Assembly (NCBI GenBank): GCA_003222085.1
Contig: QHUK01000010.1
Span: forward strand, 145,801 to 209,800
Length of the DNA stretch: 64,000 nt
DNA from: Gemmatimonadota bacterium
GTDB lineage: Bacteria > Gemmatimonadota > Gemmatimonadetes > Gemmatimonadales > GWC2-71-9
Direction: 5' to 3'
Shown here in pieces: positions 9,977 through 48,682 of the stretch. Under the pieces are notes generated by a model, which was given only the letters and a program-made list of their open reading frames with translations, searched no databases and was not told the DNA's origin. The stretch's first letter is position 1, and the number at the start of each line of letters is the position of its first letter. Position numbers and translations under genes: made by a program.

Positions 9977-10030
9977 GGTCGGACGGTCGGACCCTAAAGG
10001 ACTCCCCTGCGGTCGCGGTCGGACGGTCGG
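9977..10030. repeat. two direct copies of GGTCGGACGGTCGG, 40 bp apart, in an intergenic spacer
   Basis: Copies at 9977-9990 and 10017-10030, read directly. They belong to a CCGNCCG-type oligomer family also seen near 12.35, 16.99, 19.55 and 59.9-60.0 kb. Confidence 0.7.
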
Positions 10031-10031
10031 C

Positions 10032-10838
10032 TTGTCCGTGCCACTCCTGCTCCTCGCGACCAGCGCGTTCGCCCAGGTCGCCCCGAACACCACCACTCGT
10101 TATCTCTTCCCCACCGACGTCAGCGACGCGCGGGCCCTCTGGGTCAATGCCGCCGGCCTGGCGGCGTTTCCAGCGGCGTCGGTCCATCTCGACCTGACGG
10201 TCGGCGATCCGGGCGCGAGCGGCAAGTTGCGGCAACTCACCTTCGGCCTCAATTCCCGCGGGCTGTCGCTCGGCTACCAGCGCGACCTGTTCAGCGACCA
10301 CCAACGGGGGCACACCTACCGGGTGGGATACGCGGCGGGCCGTGCGGGACTCGCGGCAGGATTTGCGGCGGCGCTGTACCGGGGGGGTACCTCCAGCACG
10401 GGCTGGGACGTGGGCGTCGTGTACGACTGGGTGCCGGCTCTGTCGGTGGGCGGAGCGATCCAAAACATCGGACGACCGGTCGTGCGCGATTCGACCCTGC
10501 GCATCACATACGTCCCGAGTGCGACGCTGCGGCTCGCCGGGCGACGGGTCGTCGTATCTGCGCTCAGCCGCGTCACGACCGATGGGGTGGCGGGCTACGC
10601 CCTGGGTCTGGGCGGCACACTACGAGCGGAGACGTCATTCCCCATCGGCCTGCTCGCCCGCCTCGACACCGACCGCTCGCTGCGCCGCACTGGTCTCGCG
10701 TTCGGCTTCTCGCTCGGCGGTGAAGACGCCGCCGGTCTGATTGCGACGGCTCCCGGCGATGCTCACGGAATCGACGGCCTGAGCGTGTACGGCGTGTCGA
10801 CGCGGCGCCTTACCAGCGCGCGGCGGTCGGGGCCCTAG
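10032..10838 (+). CDS. putative secreted or outer-membrane beta-strand-rich protein
   Basis: In-frame TTG 10032 or GTG 10038 within ORF 9876..10838. Signal peptide PLLLLATSAFAQ. Alternating G/S/T/Y-rich strand-like segments. Family not recognised. Confidence 0.5.
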   Translation: MSVPLLLLATSAFAQVAPNTTTRYLFPTDVSDARALWVNAAGLAAFPAASVHLDLTVGDPGASGKLRQLTFGLNSRGLSLGYQRDLFSDHQRGHTYRVGYAAGRAGLAAGFAAALYRGGTSSTGWDVGVVYDWVPALSVGGAIQNIGRPVVRDSTLRITYVPSATLRLAGRRVVVSALSRVTTDGVAGYALGLGGTLRAETSFPIGLLARLDTDRSLRRTGLAFGFSLGGEDAAGLIATAPGDAHGIDGLSVYGVSTRRLTSARRSGP

Positions 10839-14528: not shown

Positions 14529-15908
14529 CTACAGTGCGGACAATTCCTGGCGCGCCATTTCGACGCGCTCCTTGAACGTCCGATCCCGCATCATCTGCCG
14601 CTCGACCTTGTCCACCGAGTGAATCACCGTCGAATGGTCGCGCCCGCCGAACGCCTGGCCAATCTCCACGAGCTGCAGCCCGAGCATGTTCCGCGCGAGG
14701 TACATCGCCACCTGGCGCGGAATCGTCAGCGTCTTGGTGCGCGCCTTGGAGCGGAGTCCCTCCGGCGTCACGCCCCAGCGGCGGGCCACCACTTCCTGCA
14801 CCCGGTCGATGCTCGGCGTGGGCTGGGCGTAGCTCGCCCCCTCCTCCCCCTGACGGATCTTGTCCGACAGGGCCTCCCGCGCGAGCTCGATCGTGACCTC
14901 GCGGTTCTTGAGCGAGGCGAAGAGGAGCAGCTTGATGATGCAGCCCTCGAGCTCCCGCACGCTCGAGCGCACGTGCTCCGCGATGAACCGCAGCACGTCG
15001 TCGGGAATCGTGAGCTCGAGATGATCCTGCTCCGCCTTCTTGCGCAGGATCGCGATGCGGTGCTCCAGGTCCGGGTGCCCGATGTCGGCCACCAGGCCCC
15101 ACTCGAACCGGGAGATCAGCCGATCCTCGAGCCCCGGGATCTCTTTCGGCGGCCGATCCGAGGTGAGCACGATCTGCTTGTGTCCCTCGAACAGGGCGTT
15201 GAACGTGTGGAAGAACTCCTCCTGGGTCATTTCCTTCCCTTCGAGGAAATGCACGTCGTCCACCAGGAAGAGATCAACGTCGTTGCGGTACCGGCGCCGG
15301 AACTCCGACATGGTACGCGCGTGAATCGATTCGATGACTTCGTTGATGAACTGCTCGGCGCCGAAGTAGTGCACCCGCGTGCCCGGATACTTGGTGAGCA
15401 CGGCATGGGCGACCGCCTGCATCAAATGCGTCTTGCCGAGTCCCGTGGCGCCGTAGATAAAGAGCGGATTGTACGTCTTGCCGGGTGCTTCCGCGACCGC
15501 GTGCGCGGCCGCGGCGGCGAGCTCGTTCGACTTCCCGATCACGAAGGTCTGGAACGTATACCGCTCGTTGAGCGGCGTGGTCGGGACGCCCGACTTGTCG
15601 AGGGTCGCCGGCTCGCGCGGCGCCACGAAGAAGTCCATCTGGGGTCGCTGCTGGCGATCCTCTTGCACCCGGAACACGATCGCCGTGGGCCGCCCGAACA
15701 CCCGCTCGGCCGCGCGCGCCAGGACGCTGGCGTGCTTCGATTCGTTCCATTCGACGGCGAATTGGTCCGGGGCCCCGACGATCAGACGACCGTCGTCCAG
15801 CGCGATCGGCACCGCGGGCTCGAGCCACGTCCGCACGGTGGCGTCGGGGAGTTCGCGCCGCGCCTCGTCGAGGAGTCGCTTCCAAGCTTCTTTAGTAGAC
15901 TGCTCCAT
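14529..15908 (-). CDS. dnaA: chromosomal replication initiator protein DnaA
   Basis: This is the in-frame part of ORF 14529..16181. ATG 15908 gives the N-terminus MEQSTKEAWKRLLDEARREL. Walker A is GATGLGKTHL; other motifs are LLVDDVHFL and the C-terminal DNA-binding helix GGRDHSTVIH. Confidence 0.95.
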   Translation of the reverse strand: MEQSTKEAWKRLLDEARRELPDATVRTWLEPAVPIALDDGRLIVGAPDQFAVEWNESKHASVLARAAERVFGRPTAIVFRVQEDRQQRPQMDFFVAPREPATLDKSGVPTTPLNERYTFQTFVIGKSNELAAAAAHAVAEAPGKTYNPLFIYGATGLGKTHLMQAVAHAVLTKYPGTRVHYFGAEQFINEVIESIHARTMSEFRRRYRNDVDLFLVDDVHFLEGKEMTQEEFFHTFNALFEGHKQIVLTSDRPPKEIPGLEDRLISRFEWGLVADIGHPDLEHRIAILRKKAEQDHLELTIPDDVLRFIAEHVRSSVRELEGCIIKLLLFASLKNREVTIELAREALSDKIRQGEEGASYAQPTPSIDRVQEVVARRWGVTPEGLRSKARTKTLTIPRQVAMYLARNMLGLQLVEIGQAFGGRDHSTVIHSVDKVERQMMRDRTFKERVEMARQELSAL

Positions 15909-15951
15909 CCGCGACTGACTAGGAGGTGGGACGTCCAGCAAGGGCGGCCCG

Positions 15952-15980
15952 AAACTACGCGCCGCTTGTGGAAAAGTCAA
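15952..15980 (-). promoter_or_regulatory. putative dnaA promoter with embedded DnaA box
   Basis: On the minus strand: TTGACT (15980-15975), 17-nt spacer, TAGTTT (15957-15952). The spacer contains TTTTCCACA (plus-strand TGTGGAAAA 15967-15975), which is 8/9 to the TTATCCACA DnaA box. Confidence 0.5.
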
Positions 15981-15982
15981 CC

Positions 15983-16012
15983 TTGACCGCCGCGCCGGCG
16001 GCGGTGTACGTT
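15983..16012 (+). promoter_or_regulatory. putative rpmH promoter
   Basis: TTGACC (15983-15988), 18-nt spacer, TACGTT (16007-16012). Its -35 forms the palindrome GTCAACCTTGAC with the dnaA -35. GAGAGG lies 5 nt before the rpmH ATG. Confidence 0.4.
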
Positions 16013-16035
16013 TCCCGGCCTCACGAGAGGAATGC

Positions 16036-16197
16036 ATGGGTCCGACGTATCGCCCGCGCAATCGGCGGCGCATCAACAAGCACGGATTTCGCGCGCGCAT
16101 GAAAGACGTCTGGGGTCGCGCCGTCCTGTCCCGCCGGCGGAAGAAGGGGCGCAAGCGCCTCACCGTCCGCCTGCCGTCCAAACACCGGAGTCACTAA
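16036..16197 (+). CDS. rpmH: 50S ribosomal protein L34
   Basis: Below the ORF-track length cut-off, so translated by hand: [53 protein letters not shown]. This matches the L34 consensus (HGFRARM...GRKRLTV). Stop is TAA 16195-16197. Confidence 0.93.
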
Positions 16198-16220
16198 CGA
16201 GAGAGCGGTTCCCGCGGCGC

Positions 16221-16535
16221 GTGCGCCTCGCGCGCGGCCCGGAGCTCGCTGCGTGCTGGGAACAAGGTCGCCGCTTGTACACCCCGCATCTCGACCTGGC
16301 GTGGCACCCGAGTCCGCTGGGCTACGCGCGGATGGCAATCGTGGTTCCCCGCTTTCGGTTCACCGCGGTGGCCCGCAACCGCCTGCGCCGACGCTTGAGA
16401 GAGATTCTCAGACGCTACCCCGTCGCCTCGCTCCCCGCCGTCGATCTCGTCGTACGCGCGAAGCGCGCCGCGTACGCCGCGCCGTTTGCGCGGCTGCGCG
16501 CCGAGGTGGCGGCGAGCGTGACACGCCTCACATGA
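16221..16535 (+). CDS. rnpA: ribonuclease P protein component
   Basis: Frame of ORF 16032..16535. GTG 16221 is the only canonical start after the rpmH stop. The protein is basic (RNRLRRRLREILR) and follows rpmH as in most bacteria. The start is uncertain. Confidence 0.75.
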   Translation: MRLARGPELAACWEQGRRLYTPHLDLAWHPSPLGYARMAIVVPRFRFTAVARNRLRRRLREILRRYPVASLPAVDLVVRAKRAAYAAPFARLRAEVAASVTRLT

Positions 16536-16759
16536 ATCTCCGGCGCTGGCCGCGGCGCGCCGTCATGACGCTCATTCGCGTCTACCAGCTGACGCTGGCG
16601 CATCTGGTGTTCACGCAGTGTCGCTTCGTGCCGTCGTGCTCCCGCTACACCTTCGAAGCGGTGGAACGCTACGGCGCGGTCAGGGGTGTGTGGCTCGGCG
16701 CCCGACGGATCCTGCGCTGTCACCCTCTGCACCCCGGCGGCTACGATCCGGTGCCGTAA
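16532..16759 (+). CDS. yidD: membrane protein insertion efficiency factor YidD
   Basis: In-frame ATG 16532 overlaps the rnpA stop (ATGA). Motifs: YQLTLAH...CRFVPSCSRYTFEAVERYG...RILRCHPLHPGGYDPVP. Confidence 0.9.
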   Translation: MNLRRWPRRAVMTLIRVYQLTLAHLVFTQCRFVPSCSRYTFEAVERYGAVRGVWLGARRILRCHPLHPGGYDPVP

Positions 16760-16763
16760 CTAC

Positions 16764-16791
16764 TAGACGCACAGACGCGTAGACGCACAGA
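16764..16791 (+). repeat. direct repeat TAGACGCACAGA x2 flanking ACGCGT in the yidD-yidC spacer
   Basis: Copies at 16764-16775 and 16780-16791, read directly. AAGGA follows, then the yidC GTG at 16805. Confidence 0.6.
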
Positions 16792-16804
16792 GGCTAAGGA
16801 CCCA

Positions 16805-18505
16805 GTGGAACGACGCGTTATTCTGGCCGTGCTCCTGATGCTCATCGTGGCAGTCTTGCCGAGCATCCTCTTCCCGCCGAAGAAGCCGGACCGGCGGGCC
16901 GGTGCGCGGCCGGACAGCACGACGACGCCAGCAGCCGCGGCAGCGGAGTCGGCTACTGCTCCGGTGCGACCGTCGGCGAGTCCGACTGTCCGCCCGTCCG
17001 CCAGCGCCCCCGCGGAAACAGTGTGGGTCACCTCTCCCCTGTATCGCCTCGGCTTCACCACGCGGGGCGGGGCCCTGGTGCGCGCGGAGCTGTTGGGCTA
17101 CCGCTCGTTCGCCAAGGCGGATTCGGGACGACCCGTCCAACTGGTCCGGGAAGGGGTGCCGCTGCTGATCTATCGGCGCACCGGGGGCGGGGGGGGCGGC
17201 GGGGCCGGCGGGGGCGGCGACACGACGCGCGTGTCGGATTGGAGCCTGACGCCGAGCGCGACACAGGTGCAGGTGGGGTCGGAGGGTGCGACCCTCACGT
17301 TCACCGGCGCGAGAGACGGCGCGCGCCTGGCGCTCGAATACCGCTTCTTCCCGGCCGAGTATCGGTTCGCCGTGCGCGGGCGGATGGAGGGATTCGGTCC
17401 CGCCGGCGCTACGCTGCTGCTCGGGCTGGGGGATGGACTGCGCTCGGTCGAGGCTGACTCGATGGACGATTTCCGCCACTACGCCGTGGTCACGAAGGCG
17501 ACGAAGACGCAGCGTACGGACTTCGGGTCGCTCAAGCCGGCGGAGCGCAAGATCCTCGACGGGCCGTTCGAGTGGGCCGGTGTCAAGTCGAAGTACTTTT
17601 TCATCGCCGCGCTCGTCGTGGAGGACAACCAGCCGCGGTTCGGCGCGGCGCTCGTCGAGGGCGGCCCACGCACCGTGTCGACGTCGTCGCTGTTCGGCCG
17701 CTCCACGGTGGCGACGCGGGCCGCCGTCGCCGTGACGCTGCCCGTGCCTCCCGCCGGGGGGTTCGACTACCAGCTGTACGTCGGGCCCCTCGAGTTCCGG
17801 CGTCTGTCGCAGCTCGGGCACGATCTGGACGATGCCAACCCGTACGGCGGGTTCCTGCAGCCCATCATCCAGCCCGTATCGGTGCTGGTCGTGAACATCC
17901 TGATCTGGATGCACGACCGGCTGACGCTCGCCTATGGCTGGGTGCTCATCATCTTCGGCATCCTGGTCCGGCTGCTCCTGTGGCCGCTCAATCAGCGCGC
18001 CATGGAGTCGAGCATCCGGATGCAGGCGGTCGCGCCGCTCTTGAAGCAGATCCAGGACCGCTACAAGAACGAGCCCGAGCGGCTGCAACGGGAGATGATG
18101 AAGCTCTACAAGGAGCACAACGTCAACCCGTTCGGCGGCTGCCTCCCGATGCTCCTGCCGATGCCGGTGTTGTTCGCGCTGTTCTTCGTGTTCGCGAACA
18201 CGATCGAGTTTCGAGGCGTCCCGTTCCTCTGGCTTCCCGACCTGTCGCGCGCCGACCCTTACTACATCATCCCCATCGTGATGGGGCTCTCGATGTTCGT
18301 GCTCTCGAAGGTCGGGCAGATCGGGATGCCGCCGAACCCGCAGACGAAGATGATGCTGTACTTCATGCCGGCGTTCTTGACGCTCCTGTTCCTGAACTTC
18401 GCCTCGGGGCTGAACCTGTACTACGCCGTGAGCAACATTTTCAGCATCCCGCAACAGTATTTGATCGCGCAGCGCCGGCTGCGGGAGCAGGGGAAGCGAA
18501 CCTGA
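16805..18505 (+). CDS. yidC: membrane protein insertase YidC
   Basis: ORF 16805..18505 (GTG start). N-terminal TM segment, a large periplasmic domain, and a C-terminal 60-kDa-IMP core (LWPLNQRAMESSIRMQAV...MKLYKEHNVNPFGGCLPMLLPMPV). Confidence 0.93.
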   Translation: MERRVILAVLLMLIVAVLPSILFPPKKPDRRAGARPDSTTTPAAAAAESATAPVRPSASPTVRPSASAPAETVWVTSPLYRLGFTTRGGALVRAELLGYRSFAKADSGRPVQLVREGVPLLIYRRTGGGGGGGAGGGGDTTRVSDWSLTPSATQVQVGSEGATLTFTGARDGARLALEYRFFPAEYRFAVRGRMEGFGPAGATLLLGLGDGLRSVEADSMDDFRHYAVVTKATKTQRTDFGSLKPAERKILDGPFEWAGVKSKYFFIAALVVEDNQPRFGAALVEGGPRTVSTSSLFGRSTVATRAAVAVTLPVPPAGGFDYQLYVGPLEFRRLSQLGHDLDDANPYGGFLQPIIQPVSVLVVNILIWMHDRLTLAYGWVLIIFGILVRLLLWPLNQRAMESSIRMQAVAPLLKQIQDRYKNEPERLQREMMKLYKEHNVNPFGGCLPMLLPMPVLFALFFVFANTIEFRGVPFLWLPDLSRADPYYIIPIVMGLSMFVLSKVGQIGMPPNPQTKMMLYFMPAFLTLLFLNFASGLNLYYAVSNIFSIPQQYLIAQRRLREQGKRT

Positions 18506-18535
18506 CCGCGAGGCGGGAAGCGGGAGGCGAGATGC

Positions 18536-19873
18536 GTGCTGTCTGATCCGATTGTCGCTCTCGCCACACCTCCGGGTCGCGCGGCCCTCGCGGTGATCCG
18601 CCTGTCGGGGCGCGGGGCGTTCACCGTCGCCGCGCGCGCCTTGCACCCGTTTCACCCCGACCCGCCCCGCACGGTCCGTCGCGTTCACGTCGTGCATCCC
18701 GCGACCGGCGTGCCGCTGGATGACGCGCTCGCGGCCTGTTTCCCCGGGCCCCGCTCCTACACCGGCGAGGACCTGGTCGAGCTCTCGACCCACGGTGGGC
18801 TGCTCGTCCCCGCGACGGCGGTCGCGGCGCTGGTGGCCGCCGGAGCGCGGCCGGCCCGACCGGGGGAGTTCACGCGCCGGGCGGTGGTGAACGGCAAGCT
18901 CGACCTGCTCCAGGCCGAGGCGACCGCCGATTTGATCGACGCCGGTGCGCCGGCCCAGGCCCGCCGCGCGCTGCAGCATCTCGACCGCGGGCTCTCGACG
19001 CGGCTCGACGAGCTCCGCACGGAGCTGCTCGAGCTCGAGGCCCTGATCGCCTACGAGATCGACTTCCCCGACGAGGACGAAGGCCCGGTGGCGCCGGAGC
19101 GCGTCGTGCGCGCGTGGCGGGCGGCGCGCGACCGGATTGCCCGACTCCTGGACACGGCGCCCGAGGGAGAGCGCCTGCGGGAAGGCGCGCTGCTCGTCAT
19201 CGCGGGACGCCCCAACGCGGGGAAGTCGTCGCTCTTCAACGCGCTGCTCGGCACGGAGCGCGCCATCGTGACGGAGGTCCCGGGCACGACGCGCGATGCC
19301 GTCGAGGCGCATGCGGTGCTCGAGGGCTTTCCCTTCCGGCTCGTGGACACGGCGGGGCTGCGGGAGAGCGCCGATCGGGTCGAGCGGCTGGGCATCGAGG
19401 TGAGCCGCAAGTATCTCGCGGCGGCGGATCTGGTGCTCTTCTGTCGGGATGCGGGATGCGAGATGCGGGATCCGGGGTCCCAGGAATTTCTGGCATCGTG
19501 CCGCGCACCGGTCATCGACGTGGTGACGAAGATCGACCTGACCGCCCGTCCGCCCGACCGCCTGGGGGTGTCGGTGGTGACTGGGGAAGGCCTCGCGGAC
19601 CTGCGTCGCAAGCTCGCGGAAGTGGCGTACGGTCGGCTGCTGGCGCTCGGTGACGTGGAGCCGGTGGTGACGCGCGCCCGCCACCGCGGCGCGCTGGAGC
19701 GCGCCCTCGAGGAGGTCGACGCCTTCCACACGGCTCGGGAGAGCGGCCTGGATGCGGCTGTCGCGGCGACGCACCTGCGCGCCGCCGTAGGAGCGCTCGA
19801 CGACCTGATCGGCGTCGTGACCCCCGACGACGTCCTCGATCGCGTGTTTGCGAGCTTTTGCGTGGGGAAGTGA
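18536..19873 (+). CDS. mnmE: tRNA uridine-5-carboxymethylaminomethyl modification GTPase MnmE
   Basis: N-terminus DPIVALATPPGRAALAVIRLSG. G1 motif GRPNAGKSSLFNAL, G3 motif DTAGLR, and the C-terminal FCVGK signature. Confidence 0.93.
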   Translation: MLSDPIVALATPPGRAALAVIRLSGRGAFTVAARALHPFHPDPPRTVRRVHVVHPATGVPLDDALAACFPGPRSYTGEDLVELSTHGGLLVPATAVAALVAAGARPARPGEFTRRAVVNGKLDLLQAEATADLIDAGAPAQARRALQHLDRGLSTRLDELRTELLELEALIAYEIDFPDEDEGPVAPERVVRAWRAARDRIARLLDTAPEGERLREGALLVIAGRPNAGKSSLFNALLGTERAIVTEVPGTTRDAVEAHAVLEGFPFRLVDTAGLRESADRVERLGIEVSRKYLAAADLVLFCRDAGCEMRDPGSQEFLASCRAPVIDVVTKIDLTARPPDRLGVSVVTGEGLADLRRKLAEVAYGRLLALGDVEPVVTRARHRGALERALEEVDAFHTARESGLDAAVAATHLRAAVGALDDLIGVVTPDDVLDRVFASFCVGK

Positions 19874-21588: not shown

Positions 21589-22137
21589 ATGGACGTCCCG
21601 GCGGGTACGGCTCCTCCCCCCGCGATGCGATCTCCCGAACGCTGGCTTACGGTCCTGCGGATCGCCCTGGGCGTGTGGTTCGGGAAGGCCATCTTCACCA
21701 AGCTGAGCGTCACGCTCGTCTGGGGCTTCCTGCCCGTTCCCACCGTATCGGATCGCTGGCTGCACGTCATGCCGCTCCTCGTCACGAAGTACGCGGAGGG
21801 CAACCCCGTCGGCTTTTTCCGGGAATTCCTGCTGAACACCGTCGTCCCGAACAGTCATCTGTACGCCCAGCTGACGGCGTTTGGCGAAGCAGCGGTCGGC
21901 CTGGGGCTCGTGTTCGGGTGCTGCACGACGCTCGCGGCGGCGATTGGATTGGTGCTCGTCGTGAACTACGGGCTCGCGGTGCAATGGCAGGGCTCCGCAC
22001 AGCAGGGGTTCCACTACATGCTGATCACCACCCTGGTGGTGATTCTCGGCGCCCGCGCGGGGCGGACGTGGGGCGTGGATGGGTGGGTGCGGGCCCACCG
22101 CCCCGGCTGGTGGCTGGCGCGCGTGCCCCTCGGCTAG
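21589..22137 (+). CDS. DoxX-family membrane protein
   Basis: ORF 21589..22137. GGAGGA RBS. About four hydrophobic helices and a DoxX/DoxD-like pattern (WLTVLRIALGVWFG...FGEAAVGLGLVFG). Confidence 0.65.
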   Translation: MDVPAGTAPPPAMRSPERWLTVLRIALGVWFGKAIFTKLSVTLVWGFLPVPTVSDRWLHVMPLLVTKYAEGNPVGFFREFLLNTVVPNSHLYAQLTAFGEAAVGLGLVFGCCTTLAAAIGLVLVVNYGLAVQWQGSAQQGFHYMLITTLVVILGARAGRTWGVDGWVRAHRPGWWLARVPLG

Positions 22138-23108
22138 GGTATGTACAGCAGGTCGTTCGGCCGCTCGCCCACCGGGATGGCCGCAATCACCTTGTGGCTC
22201 CTGGTATCGATCACCGAGACCTGATCCGACCGTCCATCGGCCGTGTAGAGCCATCGTCCGTCGGGCGACAGCGCAATCCCCCACGGCCGCCGCCCCACCA
22301 CAATGGAATCGATCACCGTCCGGCGAGCGACGTCCACCACGCTCACGCTCGCGGCGGCCCCCTCCGTGAGATACGCGAGCCGCCCGTCAGGACTGAACGC
22401 GATACGAACCGGCTTGGTCTTCCCGTCGCGGATCGGGAACTGGGCGATCACGCTGTCGCTGGCGACGTCGATGATGGTGACGTTGCCCCCCGCCTCGGCC
22501 GACACCCAGACGCGGGCGCCGTCGGGGGTGAAGGCGACGGTGCGGGGGTTGTCGCCCACGTGCAGCGTGTGCAGCAGGCGCCCCGTCTTGGCGTCGAGCA
22601 CGGACACGGTGTTGTTCGTCTCTGCGGTGACGTAGAGCTTGGTGCCGTCGCGCGTGATCGCCACGCCTTCGGGCTCGACGCCGACAGCCGTCGAGAACAG
22701 GGTTTTGCCGCTCGCGAGGTCGATCGCCGACGCGTGCGCGATCTCCTCGTTCGACACGTAGGCGACCCTGCCGTCGGGGCTCAGCGCCACCAGCTCGGGG
22801 TCGCGGTTCGCTGGGATCGTGCGCGTCATCGTGCCACTCGCCACGTCCACGACACCGAGGGCGTCGTCCTGCCCCAGGGCGACGTACACGGTCCGCTTGT
22901 CCGGGCTCAGCGCCATGCCCCGGGGGCGCTTGCCCACCGGGATCGTGGCGACGACGGCGTTGGTGCGCGGCGAGACGACGGAGATGGTGTTGGGGATTTC
23001 GTTGGTCACGTAGAGCAGCGGCTCGCGGGAGCTCGCGCCGAGGGCGCTCATGAGGCCGAGCGATGCGGCCCAAACGGCGGCGCGCCGCCGGCGAGTCGTC
23101 ATGGTCAC
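22134..23108 (-). CDS. YVTN-family beta-propeller repeat protein (PQQ-dehydrogenase-associated type)
   Basis: Signal peptide, then repeated units: YVTN..ISVV, VATIPVG.RPRGMALSPDG, YVSNEE, YVTAE.., LYTADG. Confidence 0.8.
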   Translation of the reverse strand: MTMTTRRRRAAVWAASLGLMSALGASSREPLLYVTNEIPNTISVVSPRTNAVVATIPVGKRPRGMALSPDKRTVYVALGQDDALGVVDVASGTMTRTIPANRDPELVALSPDGRVAYVSNEEIAHASAIDLASGKTLFSTAVGVEPEGVAITRDGTKLYVTAETNNTVSVLDAKTGRLLHTLHVGDNPRTVAFTPDGARVWVSAEAGGNVTIIDVASDSVIAQFPIRDGKTKPVRIAFSPDGRLAYLTEGAAASVSVVDVARRTVIDSIVVGRRPWGIALSPDGRWLYTADGRSDQVSVIDTRSHKVIAAIPVGERPNDLLYIP

Positions 23109-23120
23109 AGGGGTGCCGGG

Positions 23121-23876
23121 TCAGTCGTTGAAGATCGCCTGGTCGACGTGCAGCGCCTTGTCGAGCCCGCGGATGCGGTCGCGTCCCCGGATGCCCTTGA
23201 GGATCGCGCCCGTCAGGTCGGCGCCGGTCACGTCGGCATCCGTGAGATCGGCGCCGGTCAAGTCGGCGCGGACAAGCAGGGCTTTGCGCAGGTTCGCCCC
23301 GGTGAAGTCCGCGCCGCTGAAATCAACACCGCTGGCATCGACGCGCATGATACCCATCGACTGGTTGCCGGGATCCGCGCCCAGGTTGGCCTTGACGAAT
23401 CTCGCGCGCTGCGCCTTGGCGTTGCTCATCGGCCCGATCAGGCGGGCGCCGGAGAGGTCTGCGTCGGAGAGGTCCGCGCCATAGAGAATGACGGCGAAGA
23501 CACTGGCGTCGCGCAGGACGGCGCGTCGCAAGTCGACGCGATAGGCCACGGCGACGTCCAGGTTCGCGCCGGTGAAGTCGGCCTCGGTCGCGACAGCGTC
23601 GGTGAGCGTGGCGGACGAGAGCTGCGCCCGCGCCAGATTGGCGCGCTCCAAGCGACACTTCGTGAGGTTGGCGCGCTTGAAATCGACCCCCGACAAATTG
23701 AGTCCGGCCAGGTCCTGGCCGGTAAAATCGGCGGGCTGCTGGGGGGTTGCGCGCTCGAGCGCCGCGAGCACCTGCTCGCGGGTGAGACGAGCCTGCGCGT
23801 GGCCGGGGTCGGGAGCGGCGGTCGCCGCCATGAAGGCGACGAGCACGCCCGACAGCCTCCCGACTCGGCCGATCAC
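23121..23876 (-). CDS. periplasmic pentapeptide-repeat protein
   Basis: This is the in-frame part of ORF 23121..24179. GTG 23876 overlaps the xoxG stop (GTGA). Signal-like N-terminus GRLSGVLVAFMAATAAP, then A(D/N)LxG-type pentapeptide repeats throughout (ADLTGADLTDADVTGADLTGA). Confidence 0.8.
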   Translation of the reverse strand: MIGRVGRLSGVLVAFMAATAAPDPGHAQARLTREQVLAALERATPQQPADFTGQDLAGLNLSGVDFKRANLTKCRLERANLARAQLSSATLTDAVATEADFTGANLDVAVAYRVDLRRAVLRDASVFAVILYGADLSDADLSGARLIGPMSNAKAQRARFVKANLGADPGNQSMGIMRVDASGVDFSGADFTGANLRKALLVRADLTGADLTDADVTGADLTGAILKGIRGRDRIRGLDKALHVDQAIFND

Positions 23877-24349
23877 GGACTCGTGTTCTTGCTCTGCAGG
23901 TCGGAGAGCCGGTGCGGCCGTCCGGGCTTGAGCCAGCCGTCGCTCCGGGCCTTCACGTACAGGTACACCTCTTGGATGGCCGCGGAGTCGAGCAGCACGT
24001 TCCACGCCGGCATGCCCTTCGCCGACCGGCCGTTCCACGCGGTGTAAAAGAAGCTGTCCCGCGGGAAGTTCGCGCCGGTGGGGCTCACGGCCCAGCGCAA
24101 ATCGGGCGCGGTCGGAAGGATGGGGCGCATCGCGTCCTCGCCGTGACAGCGGTAGCAGTAGACATGCCACCACTTCCATCCCTGGTAGATGGAGTCCGAC
24201 ACGAGCAGGCTGTCACGCACCGTGTCCCGCGGAGCGGCAACTGCTTGGGCCGCCCCCCCCCGCGCCCGCGGTGGGCTCCACGCCATGACGGCCGCAGCCG
24301 TGATCCAGGCGCCGATCAGGCCGCCCCGCACGAAATGCTTCGTCCTCAC
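23873..24349 (-). CDS. xoxG: c-type cytochrome, XoxG-like electron acceptor
   Basis: ORF 23873..24349. It has a signal peptide and a single haem motif CYRCH, and sits in the xoxF-xoxJ cassette. Confidence 0.75.
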   Translation of the reverse strand: MRTKHFVRGGLIGAWITAAAVMAWSPPRARGGAAQAVAAPRDTVRDSLLVSDSIYQGWKWWHVYCYRCHGEDAMRPILPTAPDLRWAVSPTGANFPRDSFFYTAWNGRSAKGMPAWNVLLDSAAIQEVYLYVKARSDGWLKPGRPHRLSDLQSKNTSP

Positions 24350-24395
24350 GTCCCGTCCCCCTGGTTGGTGCTGCGGTTCCCGCCGGCGAGCGCCG

Positions 24396-25223
24396 CTACG
24401 GGTGCGTCTCGAGCATGGGCACGTTGTACTGCCGCAGGATCTCGGTGATCTCGCCGTGCCGGCGGTCGATCACCGAATCGAGCGTGGCCTTGAGCGCCTT
24501 GTCGCGATGCCGCACGGCCATCGCCATGTCGAATGCGAATCGCATCCCCGAGACGGCGTCGGTGTCCGGCAACGCGACCATGGTGAGCGGGACGGACTCG
24601 CGCTTGACCCAATACCCCGCCAGGGGTCCCCACATCACGGCCACGTCGATCGAATCTCGCGCCACCGCGTGCACGATGTCTTCGGGGTGGTCGGCTTTGG
24701 GATCGGGATTGAGGAAGTTCCCGAACCCGACCAGGCCCACGATGCCGCGGGCGCCCAGCGCGTGCGCCGGCGGCGTGTTGGTGTAGTCGTAGCCGATGAT
24801 GTTCACGCCGATCTTGAGGCGCTTCAAGACCGTGTCGTCGAGCGAGCGCACCGCGAGGCCGCGATCGGCGCGGTACACGAAGTAGTAGGTGGAGCGGTAA
24901 TAGGGCTTCGTCGTCGCCACGGGGTCGAGGCCCACCGGGGCCTGGATCATCACGTCGCAGAATCCGCCGAGGATGGAGTTTCGCAGGACGCCACGGCGGC
25001 TGGGCCACCAGTAGTTGATGACCGTCGCGTTGAGATCTCGCGCGACGAGGTGGGCGATCTTGTTCTCGAATCCCTCCTCCTGATTGTTGGAGAAGGGCAG
25101 GTCGTAGGGATCGGCGCAGACCCGGAGGTCCGAGGGCGCCCGGGTCTGCGCACTGGCCATGAGGGCCACGCTGGCGGAGGCGACGAGTAACGCCCCCGCG
25201 AGCTTACTCCGTATGGAATGCAT
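24396..25223 (-). CDS. xoxJ: MoxJ/XoxJ-type periplasmic substrate-binding-fold protein associated with quinoprotein dehydrogenases
   Basis: ORF 24396..25223. Signal peptide, then LRVCADPYDLPFSN..., YYRSTYYFVYR, and IDVAVMWGPLAGYW, typical of the MxaJ/XoxJ family. Confidence 0.85.
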   Translation of the reverse strand: MHSIRSKLAGALLVASASVALMASAQTRAPSDLRVCADPYDLPFSNNQEEGFENKIAHLVARDLNATVINYWWPSRRGVLRNSILGGFCDVMIQAPVGLDPVATTKPYYRSTYYFVYRADRGLAVRSLDDTVLKRLKIGVNIIGYDYTNTPPAHALGARGIVGLVGFGNFLNPDPKADHPEDIVHAVARDSIDVAVMWGPLAGYWVKRESVPLTMVALPDTDAVSGMRFAFDMAMAVRHRDKALKATLDSVIDRRHGEITEILRQYNVPMLETHP

Positions 25224-25273
25224 GCATGCTCCGTGCGGGTCCGTCAGAAGGTGAGCGCGGTGCCCAAGTACTA

Positions 25274-25311
25274 CACCCGGTGCCGGAGCGCGTTCGCTCC
25301 GGCACCGGGTG
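25274..25311 (-). terminator. perfect 17-bp stem / 4-nt loop hairpin between xoxF and xoxJ (attenuator or mRNA stabiliser)
   Basis: CACCCGGTGCCGGAGCG cgtt CGCTCCGGCACCGGGTG, read directly. It lies 45 nt after the xoxF stop. Only a weak U-rich tail follows on the minus strand. Confidence 0.65.
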
Positions 25312-25355
25312 CTCGACGCATCTGCCGACTGCGATTCGTGATACGCTTCGACTGC

Positions 25356-27122
25356 TTACAACCCGAACACGAGCAGCGTGCCGCCCGCGTTGCTGATGTT
25401 GATGTAGTCCCCGAAGGCGCCGATCGCGCCGAGCGCGGCGGTCGGGTCCTCGGGGCCGATGCCGAGCGCCACACCGGCGCCGGCCCAGCCGCCCACTCCG
25501 GAGAGCACGGCGACGTACTGCTTGCCGTCGGGACCCAGATACGTCATCGGGTTGCCGATGATCCCCGAGGGTGCCTTAAACTTCCACAGGAGCGTGCCGG
25601 TCGTAGCGTCGACCGCCTTGAGCCAGCCTTCCATCGTGCCGTAGAACACGATGCCCGAGGCCGTGGCGAGCGCGCCGCCGTAGGCCGCCAGGTTCTCCTT
25701 GACTTCCCACTTGACCTTGCCGACCGTCGGATCCCACGCGATGAACCGGCCACGGTTACCGCCCGGGCCAGGGAACATGCGCACGATCGCGCCGACGTAC
25801 GGCTGGCCGGCCGAGTACTTCACCTCTACGCCCTCGTAGTCCATGCAGATGTTGTTCGTGGGGACGTAGAAGAGCTTGGTCTGCGGTGAGAACGCGGAAG
25901 GCTGCTGATCCTTGAAGCCGATCGCGGCGGGACAGATACCCTCGGTGTTCTTCTTCGAGGTCGTCCCATACTGCGCATTGCGGACCGGGAGGCCCGTCGA
26001 GAGATCGATCTTGGACGCCCAGTTGACCGGGCCGTAGGGCTCAGCCACGAGCACCTTGCCGTTCGTCCGATCGAGCGTGTAGCCGAAGCCGTTGCGGTCG
26101 AAGTGCACCAGCGCCTTCACCGGCTTCGCGCCGATCGTCAGGTCGACGAGGACGTTCTCGTTCACGCCATCGTAGTCCCACTCATCGTGCGGCGTCATCT
26201 GGTACGCCCACTTCGCCTCCCCGTTGTCGGGATTGCGGGCGAAGATCGTCATCGACCACTTGTTGTCGCCGGGCCGTTGATCGGGGTTCCACGTCCCCGG
26301 GTTGCCCGAGCTGTAGTAGAACAGGTTCAGCTGCGGATCATAGGAATACCAACCCCACGTGGTCCCGCCGCCATGCTGCCACTCGTCGCCCTGCCAGGTG
26401 CTGACGCCGAGGTCCTTGCCGCGGTGCGACGCATAGTTCGGGTTGGCGTCGCCGACGATCTTCACGTCGGCGTCCGGGCCCGTCGAATACGCGCGCCACA
26501 CCTCCTTGCCGCTGTTCACGTCGTACGCCGTCACGCGACCGCGCACGCCGAACTCACCACCCGAGATGCCCGCGATCACGATGTCCTTGATCACGATCGG
26601 CGCATTCGTCATGGTCGAGCCGGTCTTGTAATCGGCGTTCGGCACGCGCCACAGCTGCTTGCCCGTCTTCGCATCCAGCGCCAGCAGATCGCCGGCGAGC
26701 AGCTCGATAAACAGCTTTCCGCTCGGATGGTAGGCGACGCCGCGGTTCACCAGATCGCAGCACGCGATCGGCTTGGCCTCGGCCGGCTGGGCGGGTGTGT
26801 GCTTCCAGATCATCGGTGCGCCGTCCTTGGTCAGGTCGAGCGCAAACACGATGTTCGGGAACGCGCTGTGAACGTACATCACATTGCCGATCACCAGCGG
26901 GTTCCCCTCATGGCCGTTCAGAACGCCCGTCGAGAACGTCCAGGCGGCCTTGAGGTTCTTCACGTTCGCCTTGTTGATCTGGGTGAGCGGGCTGTAACGC
27001 TGCAGGTCGGGAGTCCGACCCGTCATCGTCCACTCGCCCGCACCCTGGGCGACGGCGGACGCCGTGGCGAGCACCATCAGGCTCGCCGCGAGTCCACCGG
27101 ACCACAGTTTGAAGCGGTTCAT
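25356..27122 (-). CDS. xoxF: PQQ-dependent methanol/alcohol dehydrogenase, XoxF type (lanthanide-binding signature)
   Basis: This is the in-frame part of ORF 25356..27257. ATG 27122 is preceded by GAGG. Signal peptide MNRFKLWSGGLAASLMVLATASAVAQG. Vicinal Cys pair in PIACCDLVNRG. The motif TPHDEWDYDGVNE carries the additional Asp (D-Y-D) characteristic of Ln-dependent XoxF/ExaF-type enzymes. There is no small-subunit (mxaI) gene nearby. Confidence 0.9.
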   Translation of the reverse strand: MNRFKLWSGGLAASLMVLATASAVAQGAGEWTMTGRTPDLQRYSPLTQINKANVKNLKAAWTFSTGVLNGHEGNPLVIGNVMYVHSAFPNIVFALDLTKDGAPMIWKHTPAQPAEAKPIACCDLVNRGVAYHPSGKLFIELLAGDLLALDAKTGKQLWRVPNADYKTGSTMTNAPIVIKDIVIAGISGGEFGVRGRVTAYDVNSGKEVWRAYSTGPDADVKIVGDANPNYASHRGKDLGVSTWQGDEWQHGGGTTWGWYSYDPQLNLFYYSSGNPGTWNPDQRPGDNKWSMTIFARNPDNGEAKWAYQMTPHDEWDYDGVNENVLVDLTIGAKPVKALVHFDRNGFGYTLDRTNGKVLVAEPYGPVNWASKIDLSTGLPVRNAQYGTTSKKNTEGICPAAIGFKDQQPSAFSPQTKLFYVPTNNICMDYEGVEVKYSAGQPYVGAIVRMFPGPGGNRGRFIAWDPTVGKVKWEVKENLAAYGGALATASGIVFYGTMEGWLKAVDATTGTLLWKFKAPSGIIGNPMTYLGPDGKQYVAVLSGVGGWAGAGVALGIGPEDPTAALGAIGAFGDYINISNAGGTLLVFGL

Positions 27123-48166: not shown

Positions 48167-48682
48167 TCAGCCCTTGTCCGCGCCGCCGGCGAACGGATGC
48201 GACGCCGTCTTCGCCTGGGAGATTACCTGGTCGATCTTCGGCTGGCCCTTGAGGGCGCGCTCGATCGATTCCTTCACCGCCCGGTAATTGAAGTCGAAGA
48301 TCTTCTTGTCGTTCTTCGCTTCCCAGTGGATGAACACACCCACCAGGATGCAATAGTCGTCCACCTTGTCCCGCGGGATGATGCCCGAGGACACGCTGTC
48401 GACCACCGCACGCGCGACCGCGGCCTGCGCCGGGCCGAACATTTGCACGGCCTGCGTGGCGTTCTTGAGGGTGACCTTGTTGAAGAGCAGGGTGTCGGGT
48501 TTCGCCGGCAGGTTGGGCGTGACGACGGCGAGCAGCTTGGTGAAACCGTCGGTGTTGTTCGACAACGTGCTGACGAAAGCATGCCCCGCGTGGCCCGACT
48601 TCGACCCGATGATCAAATCGATGTGGGCGACCTCATTCCCGTCGCCTACCAGAGACTCGCCAATGAAGAAATCCGCTGCCAT
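48167..48682 (-). CDS. fae: formaldehyde-activating enzyme
   Basis: ORF 48167..48682. GGGAGG RBS. Fae-family similarity along the full length ([28 protein letters not shown]). Confidence 0.92.

Follow-up and report, generated by a model that had tools for sequence, protein, structure and literature searches.

PedD (PP_2673; PA1981) is an uncharacterised, predicted exported pentapeptide-repeat protein (PRP) that is conserved and co-regulated with PedE and PedF, and truncation of pedD impaired growth on alcohols (PMC12997753). The abundance of PP_2673 tracks that of PedE (PMC7188995). Among the curated NCBIfam models, none represents PedD. PedA2 is the TIGR03866 beta-propeller of the lanthanide transporter PedA1A2BC, on which PedH-dependent growth relies when lanthanum is low (PMC12997753). 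The proteins XoxJ and MxaJ have been proposed as maturation helpers. Here, a lanthanide-type methanol dehydrogenase gene, xoxF, and the four genes that follow it were analysed in a 64,000-nt stretch of a Gemmatimonadota genome (GenBank assembly GCA_003222085.1, contig QHUK01000010.1, positions 145,801 to 209,800). This whole stretch is referred to as the window, and coordinates follow its numbering unless a locus is named. The five genes, encoding XoxF, a XoxJ-type protein, a cytochrome c, a secreted PRP and a YVTN beta-propeller, form one operon inside a tetrahydromethanopterin (H4MPT) methylotrophy island. Within this operon, the PedD-like PRP and the PedA2-like propeller probably act as periplasmic accessories that assemble with the XoxG and XoxJ proteins.

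The window has a G+C content of ~70% across its length. In a scan of species-representative genomes, its nearest relatives by XoxF were the grassland-soil metagenome-assembled genomes (MAGs) AG36 and AG46, and the window is part of a soil Gemmatimonadales MAG genome. A methanol island of Gemmatimonadetes from the same soils has already been published (PMC5103831; PMC6784897), in Angelo grassland soil no class of methanol dehydrogenase other than the XoxF type was detected, and that type was abundant (PMC6784897), and a 'YncE/PQQ-associated beta-propeller' is shown in the published Gemmatimonadetes descriptions (PMC10875860). A pentapeptide-repeat gene is not mentioned in the published descriptions of the Gemmatimonadetes methanol island (PMC5103831, PMC6784897, PMC10875860).

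Gene content of the xoxF operon

The five genes are located on the minus strand between positions 22134 and 27122, exactly where an earlier sequence-only reading of this DNA had placed them, and the gaps between them, in order from xoxF to the propeller gene, are 132, 46, -4 and 12 nt. No terminator-like site was found on the minus strand within the cassette. The absence of mxaI from the cassette, which had also been claimed, holds, given that these gaps leave no room for it; no MxaI model was run on the remainder of the window.

The xoxF gene (25356..27122, minus strand) encodes a lanthanide-type methanol dehydrogenase of 588 amino acids (aa) that is dependent on pyrroloquinoline quinone (PQQ) and carries a signal peptide; it scored 683 bits against TIGR03075 (cut-off 480). 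When the protein was compared with known structures, the XoxF enzymes gave 724 bits (6oc5, XoxF1 of M. extorquens), 720 bits (4mae, SolV of Methylacidiphilum) and 693 bits, most MxaF structures gave 615-639 bits with the weakest (5xm3) at 600 bits, and the PedH/ExaA types reached only 319-348 bits. As judged by sequence similarity, XoxF groups with the methanol dehydrogenases and is far from PedH/ExaA. The segment TPHDEWDYDGVNEN (26154-26195) contains the D-Y-D motif (D316-Y317-D318, 26169..26177, minus strand), which supplies the catalytic Asp together with the additional Asp that coordinates the lanthanide. On proper alignment, D-Y-D matched W-D-F-D of 6oc5 and W-D-Y-D of 4mae, and the lanthanide Asp is therefore present in XoxF, in agreement with the lanthanide type first proposed for it. 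The enzyme was 54% identical to a RefSeq-annotated XoxF5, and its distances to the XoxF5-type and XoxF2-type structures were about equal. The literature places the XoxF of Gemmatimonadetes in the same sets of soil MAGs in XoxF3 and describes XoxF3 enzymes as uncharacterised (PMC10875860); the biochemistry of XoxF3-type systems in Gemmatimonadetes and Acidobacteria is unstudied.

The second gene (24396..25223, minus strand) encodes a XoxJ-type periplasmic binding protein of 275 aa, which passed TIGR03871 (259 bits, cut-off 212) and failed the MoxJ equivalog TIGR03870 (136 bits, cut-off 258). Its top match in the PDB was XoxJ (6onp, 4.4e-39). The third gene (23873..24349, minus strand) encodes a class I cytochrome c of 158 aa with a Pfam Cytochrome_CBB3 score of 28 bits. 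It had been read as a one-haem XoxG. The haem count is borne out by a single CYRCH motif (24143-24157), but by sequence the protein is only weakly similar to the XoxG families (TIGR03874, 23.7 bits against 161.75; XoxG 6onq, E=0.024). A XoxG role is instead suggested by its position, as the positional XoxG equivalent, and by the XoxJ::cytochrome fusions described below. The mature cytochrome is basic (isoelectric point ~9.3), and the remaining four cassette proteins are near neutral. In a protein search, its family comprised ~600 proteins; the few matches with a named source were all from Gemmatimonadales, and the best 120 were standalone forms with no further fusions.

The PRP gene (23121..23876, minus strand; 251 aa; Pfam Pentapeptide PF00805, 122 bits) starts with a GTG codon (23876-23874) that overlaps the TGA stop codon of the cytochrome gene, so that the two share the GTGA at 23873-23876 noted from the letters before. 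This start is supported by the alignment with relatives, in which similarity extends from the first residue of the GTG reading; the N-terminal hydrophobic segment, ending in AQA, was conserved in the relatives from the same residue. The sequence-only reading took the overlap to imply co-translation and, from it, a possible partnership of the two products. The first part stands, given that a 4-nt overlap indicates translational coupling, but the overlap itself is not physical association.

For the PRP, an alignment of 63 sequences from Gemmatimonadales and Proteobacteria was used to build an AF2 model (predicted local distance difference test score, pLDDT, 92; predicted template-modelling score, pTM, 0.85). 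The predicted structure was a continuous right-handed beta-helix, with residues 1-29 (the signal peptide) disordered and a cap helix at residues 33-42. The repeats are interrupted by a signature loop, G166-R178 GADPGNQSMGIMR (23343..23381, minus strand), in which a short helix was modelled at residues 169-174. Within the loop motif D-x-x-N-Q-x-M-G-x-M-R, residues D168, N171, Q172, M174 and G175 were invariant in the 63 PRPs, and M177 and R178 were nearly so; the N-terminal helix was also conserved in this alignment. When the model was compared with the PDB by Foldseek, only other PRPs were retrieved (HetL, designed solenoids, Qnr, MfpA and the lumenal Rfr proteins).

The last gene (22134..23108, minus strand) encodes a seven-bladed YVTN beta-propeller of 324 aa. 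Its YVTN repeats passed TIGR02276 clearly (199 bits), and its PDB matches included 1l0q, 5c2v and 3vgz/7seu. Against TIGR03866 it scored 270.5 bits, narrowly under the cut-off of 287.3, and its relative at locus L003 scored 261.6 bits. The sequence-only reading linked propellers of this kind to PQQ-associated ATP-binding cassette (ABC) systems, and this matches both TIGR03866 and PedA2 (PMC12997753). The N-terminus of the propeller, MTMTTRRRRAAVWAASLGL (23060-23108, minus strand), resembles a twin-arginine (Tat) signal, and those of the other four proteins are Sec-like.

Conserved linkage and natural gene fusions

With XoxF as the query, 80 loci (71-97% identity) were recovered from species-representative genomes, and all except two contigs belonged to Gemmatimonadales MAGs. 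Linkage was counted by tblastn of the window proteins in the 63 loci whose sequence continues for 5.5 kb or more past xoxF. Of these, 61 had the XoxJ-type protein, 61 the cytochrome, 58 the PRP, 57 the propeller, and 54 both the PRP and the propeller, with PRP identity falling to 43-50%. Within the closer clade, 24 loci retained the (A/G)TGA overlap of the cytochrome and PRP genes; among more distant loci, gaps were mostly <100 nt, with a few of ~130-280 nt. The PRP also remained with the cassette where the flanks were rearranged (L061, L082 and L085). The linkage of the PRP and the propeller to xoxF is real. Its loss in other genomes had been named in advance as an observation that would count against the association, and what was found was conservation across the order Gemmatimonadales and recurrence beyond it.

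Two loci binned as 'Deltaproteobacteria DP_8' (L042 and L054) carried a XoxF 78-81% identical to the Gemmatimonadales enzyme, and L054 had a xoxJ::cytochrome gene and a propeller gene without the PRP. Their assignment could reflect mis-binning or lateral transfer.

Products of neighbouring cassette genes were found joined in single open reading frames (ORFs) in relatives. The XoxJ-type protein and the cytochrome formed one ORF in 15 of 75 loci (e.g. L003:8793-9989, L010, L011, L014 and L017-L019), and the L003 product contained TIGR03871 as well as the cytochrome domain. Fused xoxGJ genes are known in Methylacidiphilum and provide a parallel. In P0005, the cytochrome was fused to the PRP, with a short linker replacing the PRP signal peptide, and this fusion was present in a syntenic context on contigs from two samples. 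The domain DUF3280 (PF11684) was N-terminal to the PRP in 18 loci, and most database homologues of the PRP are proteins of ~400 aa with the same N-terminal domain. Furthermore, DUF3280, the PRP and the propeller were combined in single ORFs at L027:13206-15299 (697 aa) and L031:13129-15318 (729 aa), where the linkers differed and the propeller's own Tat-like signal peptide was absent. All of the fusion partners are exported proteins: a c-type cytochrome, the propeller, and DUF3280, which has a signal peptide itself. To our knowledge, no fusions with cytochrome c, DUF3280, a YVTN propeller or rhodanese have been described for characterised PRPs. Gene fusions are a classical indicator of proteins acting together, and those observed here suggest that the cassette products do so; they lend indirect support to the earlier proposal that the PRP is a physical partner of the XoxF/XoxG machinery.

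Loop-bearing PRPs were also found beyond Gemmatimonadales. In a Ruegeria plasmid, such a PRP is encoded in a XoxF5 cluster, between formaldehyde-detoxification genes and genes for the 'quinoprotein relay' zinc hydrolase and SoxYZ-like carrier, and in Hyphomicrobium it adjoins fhc genes, SoxYZ and a gene for a metallo-beta-lactamase-type hydrolase (MBL). In a proteobacterial xoxF-G-J cluster, the PRP gene directly follows pqqBCDE and a standalone DUF3280 gene is also present. DUF3280 looks like a further unrecognised accessory of the XoxF/PQQ systems. At this locus (L094), the DUF3280 gene spans 68-577 and the PRP gene (10001-10789) begins 35 nt after pqqE. Two other proteobacterial loci yielded composite genes: a PRP::rhodanese fusion after SoxYZ (L093:1499-2857), and an ABC_tran::PRP gene call near SoxYZ and MBL (L092:5753-7102), for which a gene-calling artefact is possible. 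When a plasmid collection was searched with the PRP, mostly generic PRPs were retrieved, and the signature loop was found only in the Ruegeria and Methylocella proteins. A PRP encoded beside a cytochrome c in Azospirillum lacked the signature loop.

Two PRPs with the same loop and 54-56% identity (L004:10001-11326 and L006:2051-3978) adjoin cupredoxin/plastocyanin-like genes. These neighbours hint at a general tie of such PRPs to small periplasmic electron carriers. In the window itself, tblastn with proteobacterial queries found no pqqBCDE, SoxYZ-like carrier, MBL hydrolase, CXXCW/rhodanese or DUF3280.

On the other strand, a DoxD/DoxX-like membrane protein gene (21589..22137, plus strand; Pfam DoxD, 29.6 bits) is the convergent neighbour of the cassette and has a 4-nt overlap at its 3' end with the propeller gene. 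This adjacency was kept in 57 of the 63 loci, including those with rearranged H4MPT genes (L061, L082 and L085), and the protein might be a membrane partner of the XoxF system. In L065, a 3-kb insert (15543-18564) between the propeller and DoxD genes encodes an M3 peptidase and a pair of small, secreted, Cys-containing paralogues; such an insert is seen in the more distant Gemmatimonadales. At the xoxF end, the window contains genes of H4MPT biosynthesis and formaldehyde oxidation, including beta-RFAP synthase, DUF447 and Pterin_4a (pterin-4a-carbinolamine dehydratase). The region 27333-48700 carries a complete-looking H4MPT C1 module, in which ORFs resembling pabA/pabB, a DHPS-like gene, fae (48167-48682), fhcA and mch were noted by eye. 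The H4MPT genes adjoin dnaN-, yidC- and mnmE-like ORFs, and these families were confirmed in the gene tables of the relatives.

A proposed accessory complex and its alternatives

According to the proposed scheme, XoxF would act in the periplasm, using PQQ and a lanthanide to oxidise methanol, the electrons would pass to the small basic cytochrome c in the role of XoxG, and the XoxJ-type protein would serve as a maturation or activation helper, as has been proposed in other methylotrophs. The PRP would be the counterpart of the uncharacterised PedD/QedB of the Pseudomonas PQQ-alcohol-dehydrogenase clusters, and the propeller would be the counterpart of PedA2 (TIGR03866). Both are predicted to be exported accessories, and they would physically assemble with the cytochrome and XoxJ. 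In such an assembly, the PRP may be a rigid beta-helical adaptor joining the cytochrome to the propeller, with its signature loop as a candidate site for a specific contact or a ligand. The outcome would be a periplasmic support complex of XoxF for electron hand-over and/or the loading of cofactor and metal, which would operate without a dedicated ABC importer at the locus.

Several observations weigh against this scheme. Among the 63 loci, the PRP was found without the propeller in 4, the propeller without the PRP in 3, and neither of them in 2; neither protein is obligatory, since each is individually missing in some loci. Several loop-bearing PRPs are encoded away from any PQQ gene (L004, L006, L087, L091 and L095). 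The likeness to PedD was set by gene context and description, and common ancestry and sharing of the loop were shown only for alphaproteobacterial PRPs of xox/pqq/SoxYZ clusters. The propeller, for its part, stays below the TIGR03866 cut-off. The linkage within Gemmatimonadales could largely be due to vertical inheritance of a syntenic block, because the neighbourhood, including the adjacent housekeeping genes (the H4MPT genes, DoxD, mnmE, yidC, dnaA and dnaN), is also syntenic in the relatives. Finally, fusions on MAG contigs may arise as assembly or frameshift artefacts, though this is unlikely here, because the linkers differ, the signal peptides were lost and the fusions recur.

A wider role may tentatively be suggested for the PRP, with less confidence than the assembly of accessories set out above. 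The PedD-like PRP would be the structural hub of an unrecognised periplasmic accessory complex of PQQ/lanthanide dehydrogenases, namely a rod whose loop docks the electron carrier (the cytochrome c here, a cupredoxin in other lineages) and which links this carrier to the PedA2-type propeller, XoxJ and, in other lineages, DUF3280 or rhodanese/SoxYZ modules. If this were true, it would provide the first function for PedD and a transporter-independent function for the PQQ-associated propellers.

The chief alternative, which we regard as unlikely, is that lanthanide uptake is served by a split system. The XoxJ-type protein and the propeller would then form the periplasmic portion of a lanthanide ABC importer resembling PedA1A2BC, with the ATPase and permease genes located elsewhere in the genome, and the PRP would be an extra factor in transport or metal handling. 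The additional genes would belong to lanthanide uptake and not to an electron-transfer complex. Such a system is consistent with the need for PedA1A2BC in PedH-dependent growth at low lanthanum (PMC12997753), with the ABC_tran::PRP fusion called in one proteobacterial homologue, and with the name of the model passed by the binding protein, TIGR03871 ('quinoprotein dehydrogenase-associated putative ABC transporter substrate-binding protein'). However, the same binding protein is closest to the XoxJ structure and shares an ORF with the cytochrome in 15 loci, an arrangement more in keeping with a dehydrogenase partner than with a transporter subunit. Moreover, no ABC ATPase, sought as an ORF with Walker A and the ABC signature, was found in the window or within ~10 kb around xoxF in the 80 Gemmatimonadales loci; as a control, the signature pattern detected three known ATPases and missed one degenerate case. 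The absence of an ABC ATPase and permease from the window, already pointed out in the sequence-only reading, thus extends to the 80 loci, and the cassette therefore holds periplasmic TIGR03871-/TIGR03866-like proteins without membrane parts. The L065 insert likewise codes for its small secreted proteins and M3 peptidase and for no transporter. A PedA1A2BC-type operon with PedB/PedC-like genes was rejected, with no such genes in the window, the L065 insert or the 80 loci.

It is still less probable that the PRP and the propeller have no tie to XoxF and are syntenic passengers in a block close to the replication origin that is inherited vertically. The synteny of the whole neighbourhood and the unrelated contexts of some PRP homologues agree with this explanation. 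It does not readily account for the common strand, the gaps of -4 to 12 nt and the conserved start/stop overlap, nor for the fusions to the cytochrome and between the PRP and the propeller. In addition, the PRP stays in place when the flanks are rearranged, the same PRP type recurs in proteobacterial xox/pqq clusters, and PedD is co-regulated with PedE. The last alternative, that the PRP is a Qnr/MfpA-like DNA mimic or a cytoplasmic regulator whose signal peptide results from a wrong start codon, draws on generic sequence and fold similarity to HetL, Qnr and MfpA and is highly improbable, given that all such family models scored far under their cut-offs (28-48 bits against 240-500 for Qnr/MfpA), that the hydrophobic N-terminus up to AQA is conserved from residue 1 and disordered in the model, and that the fusion partners are all exported; with the signal peptide and these partners, the PRP was rejected as a DNA mimic.

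Comparison with known systems

The novelty is smaller than the sequence-only reading implied: a PRP beside a PQQ dehydrogenase and a cytochrome is already recognised (PedD/QedB/PA1981), and the methanol island has itself been published. The XoxF part was known before, the PRP and propeller are new members of known families whose function is unexplained, and the window adds no new kind of system. The new leads are the series of fusions and the invariant loop of the PRP, which give a testable hypothesis, that PedD- and PedA2-type proteins bind one another and the cytochrome. P. putida and M. extorquens are examples of tractable organisms for such a test.

The cassette resembles the XoxF-XoxG-XoxJ systems (M. 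extorquens 6oc5/6onq/6onp; SolV 4mae; the XoxF3 systems of Gemmatimonadetes and Acidobacteria, PMC10875860, PMC5103831) in the D-x-D motif, the Cys-Cys pair, the XoxJ homologue, the one-haem cytochrome and the lack of a small subunit, and, as in these systems, it adjoins H4MPT formaldehyde-oxidation genes. It differs from them in the order F-J-G, in a short cytochrome that is marginal to XoxG/cL, and in the PRP and propeller genes appended to it. Like PedD/QedB/PA1981, the PRP is a predicted exported protein encoded beside a PQQ alcohol dehydrogenase and a cytochrome c (PMC12997753, PMC7188995, PMC12875217); the Pseudomonas gene, however, is upstream of the Ca-type ethanol dehydrogenase gene pedE, whereas the PRP gene studied here is downstream of the cytochrome gene of XoxF. 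The propeller shares with PedA2 the seven YVTN blades and the encoding with a TIGR03871-type binding protein beside a PQQ dehydrogenase. Unlike PedA2, it falls under the TIGR03866 cut-off, has no ATPase or permease in the cassette, the window or the 80 loci, and is fused to the PRP in two relatives.

Among PRPs in general, the protein has the right-handed quadrilateral beta-helix of the characterised members (HetL 3du1, Qnr, MfpA and AlbG), and it is extracytoplasmic like the lumenal Rfr32/Rfr23 and At2g44920 and the secreted YjbI-type PRP of Caulobacter (PMC12864828). Unlike the characterised PRPs, it has no DNA-mimic context and carries an invariant loop and an N-terminal cap helix of its own.

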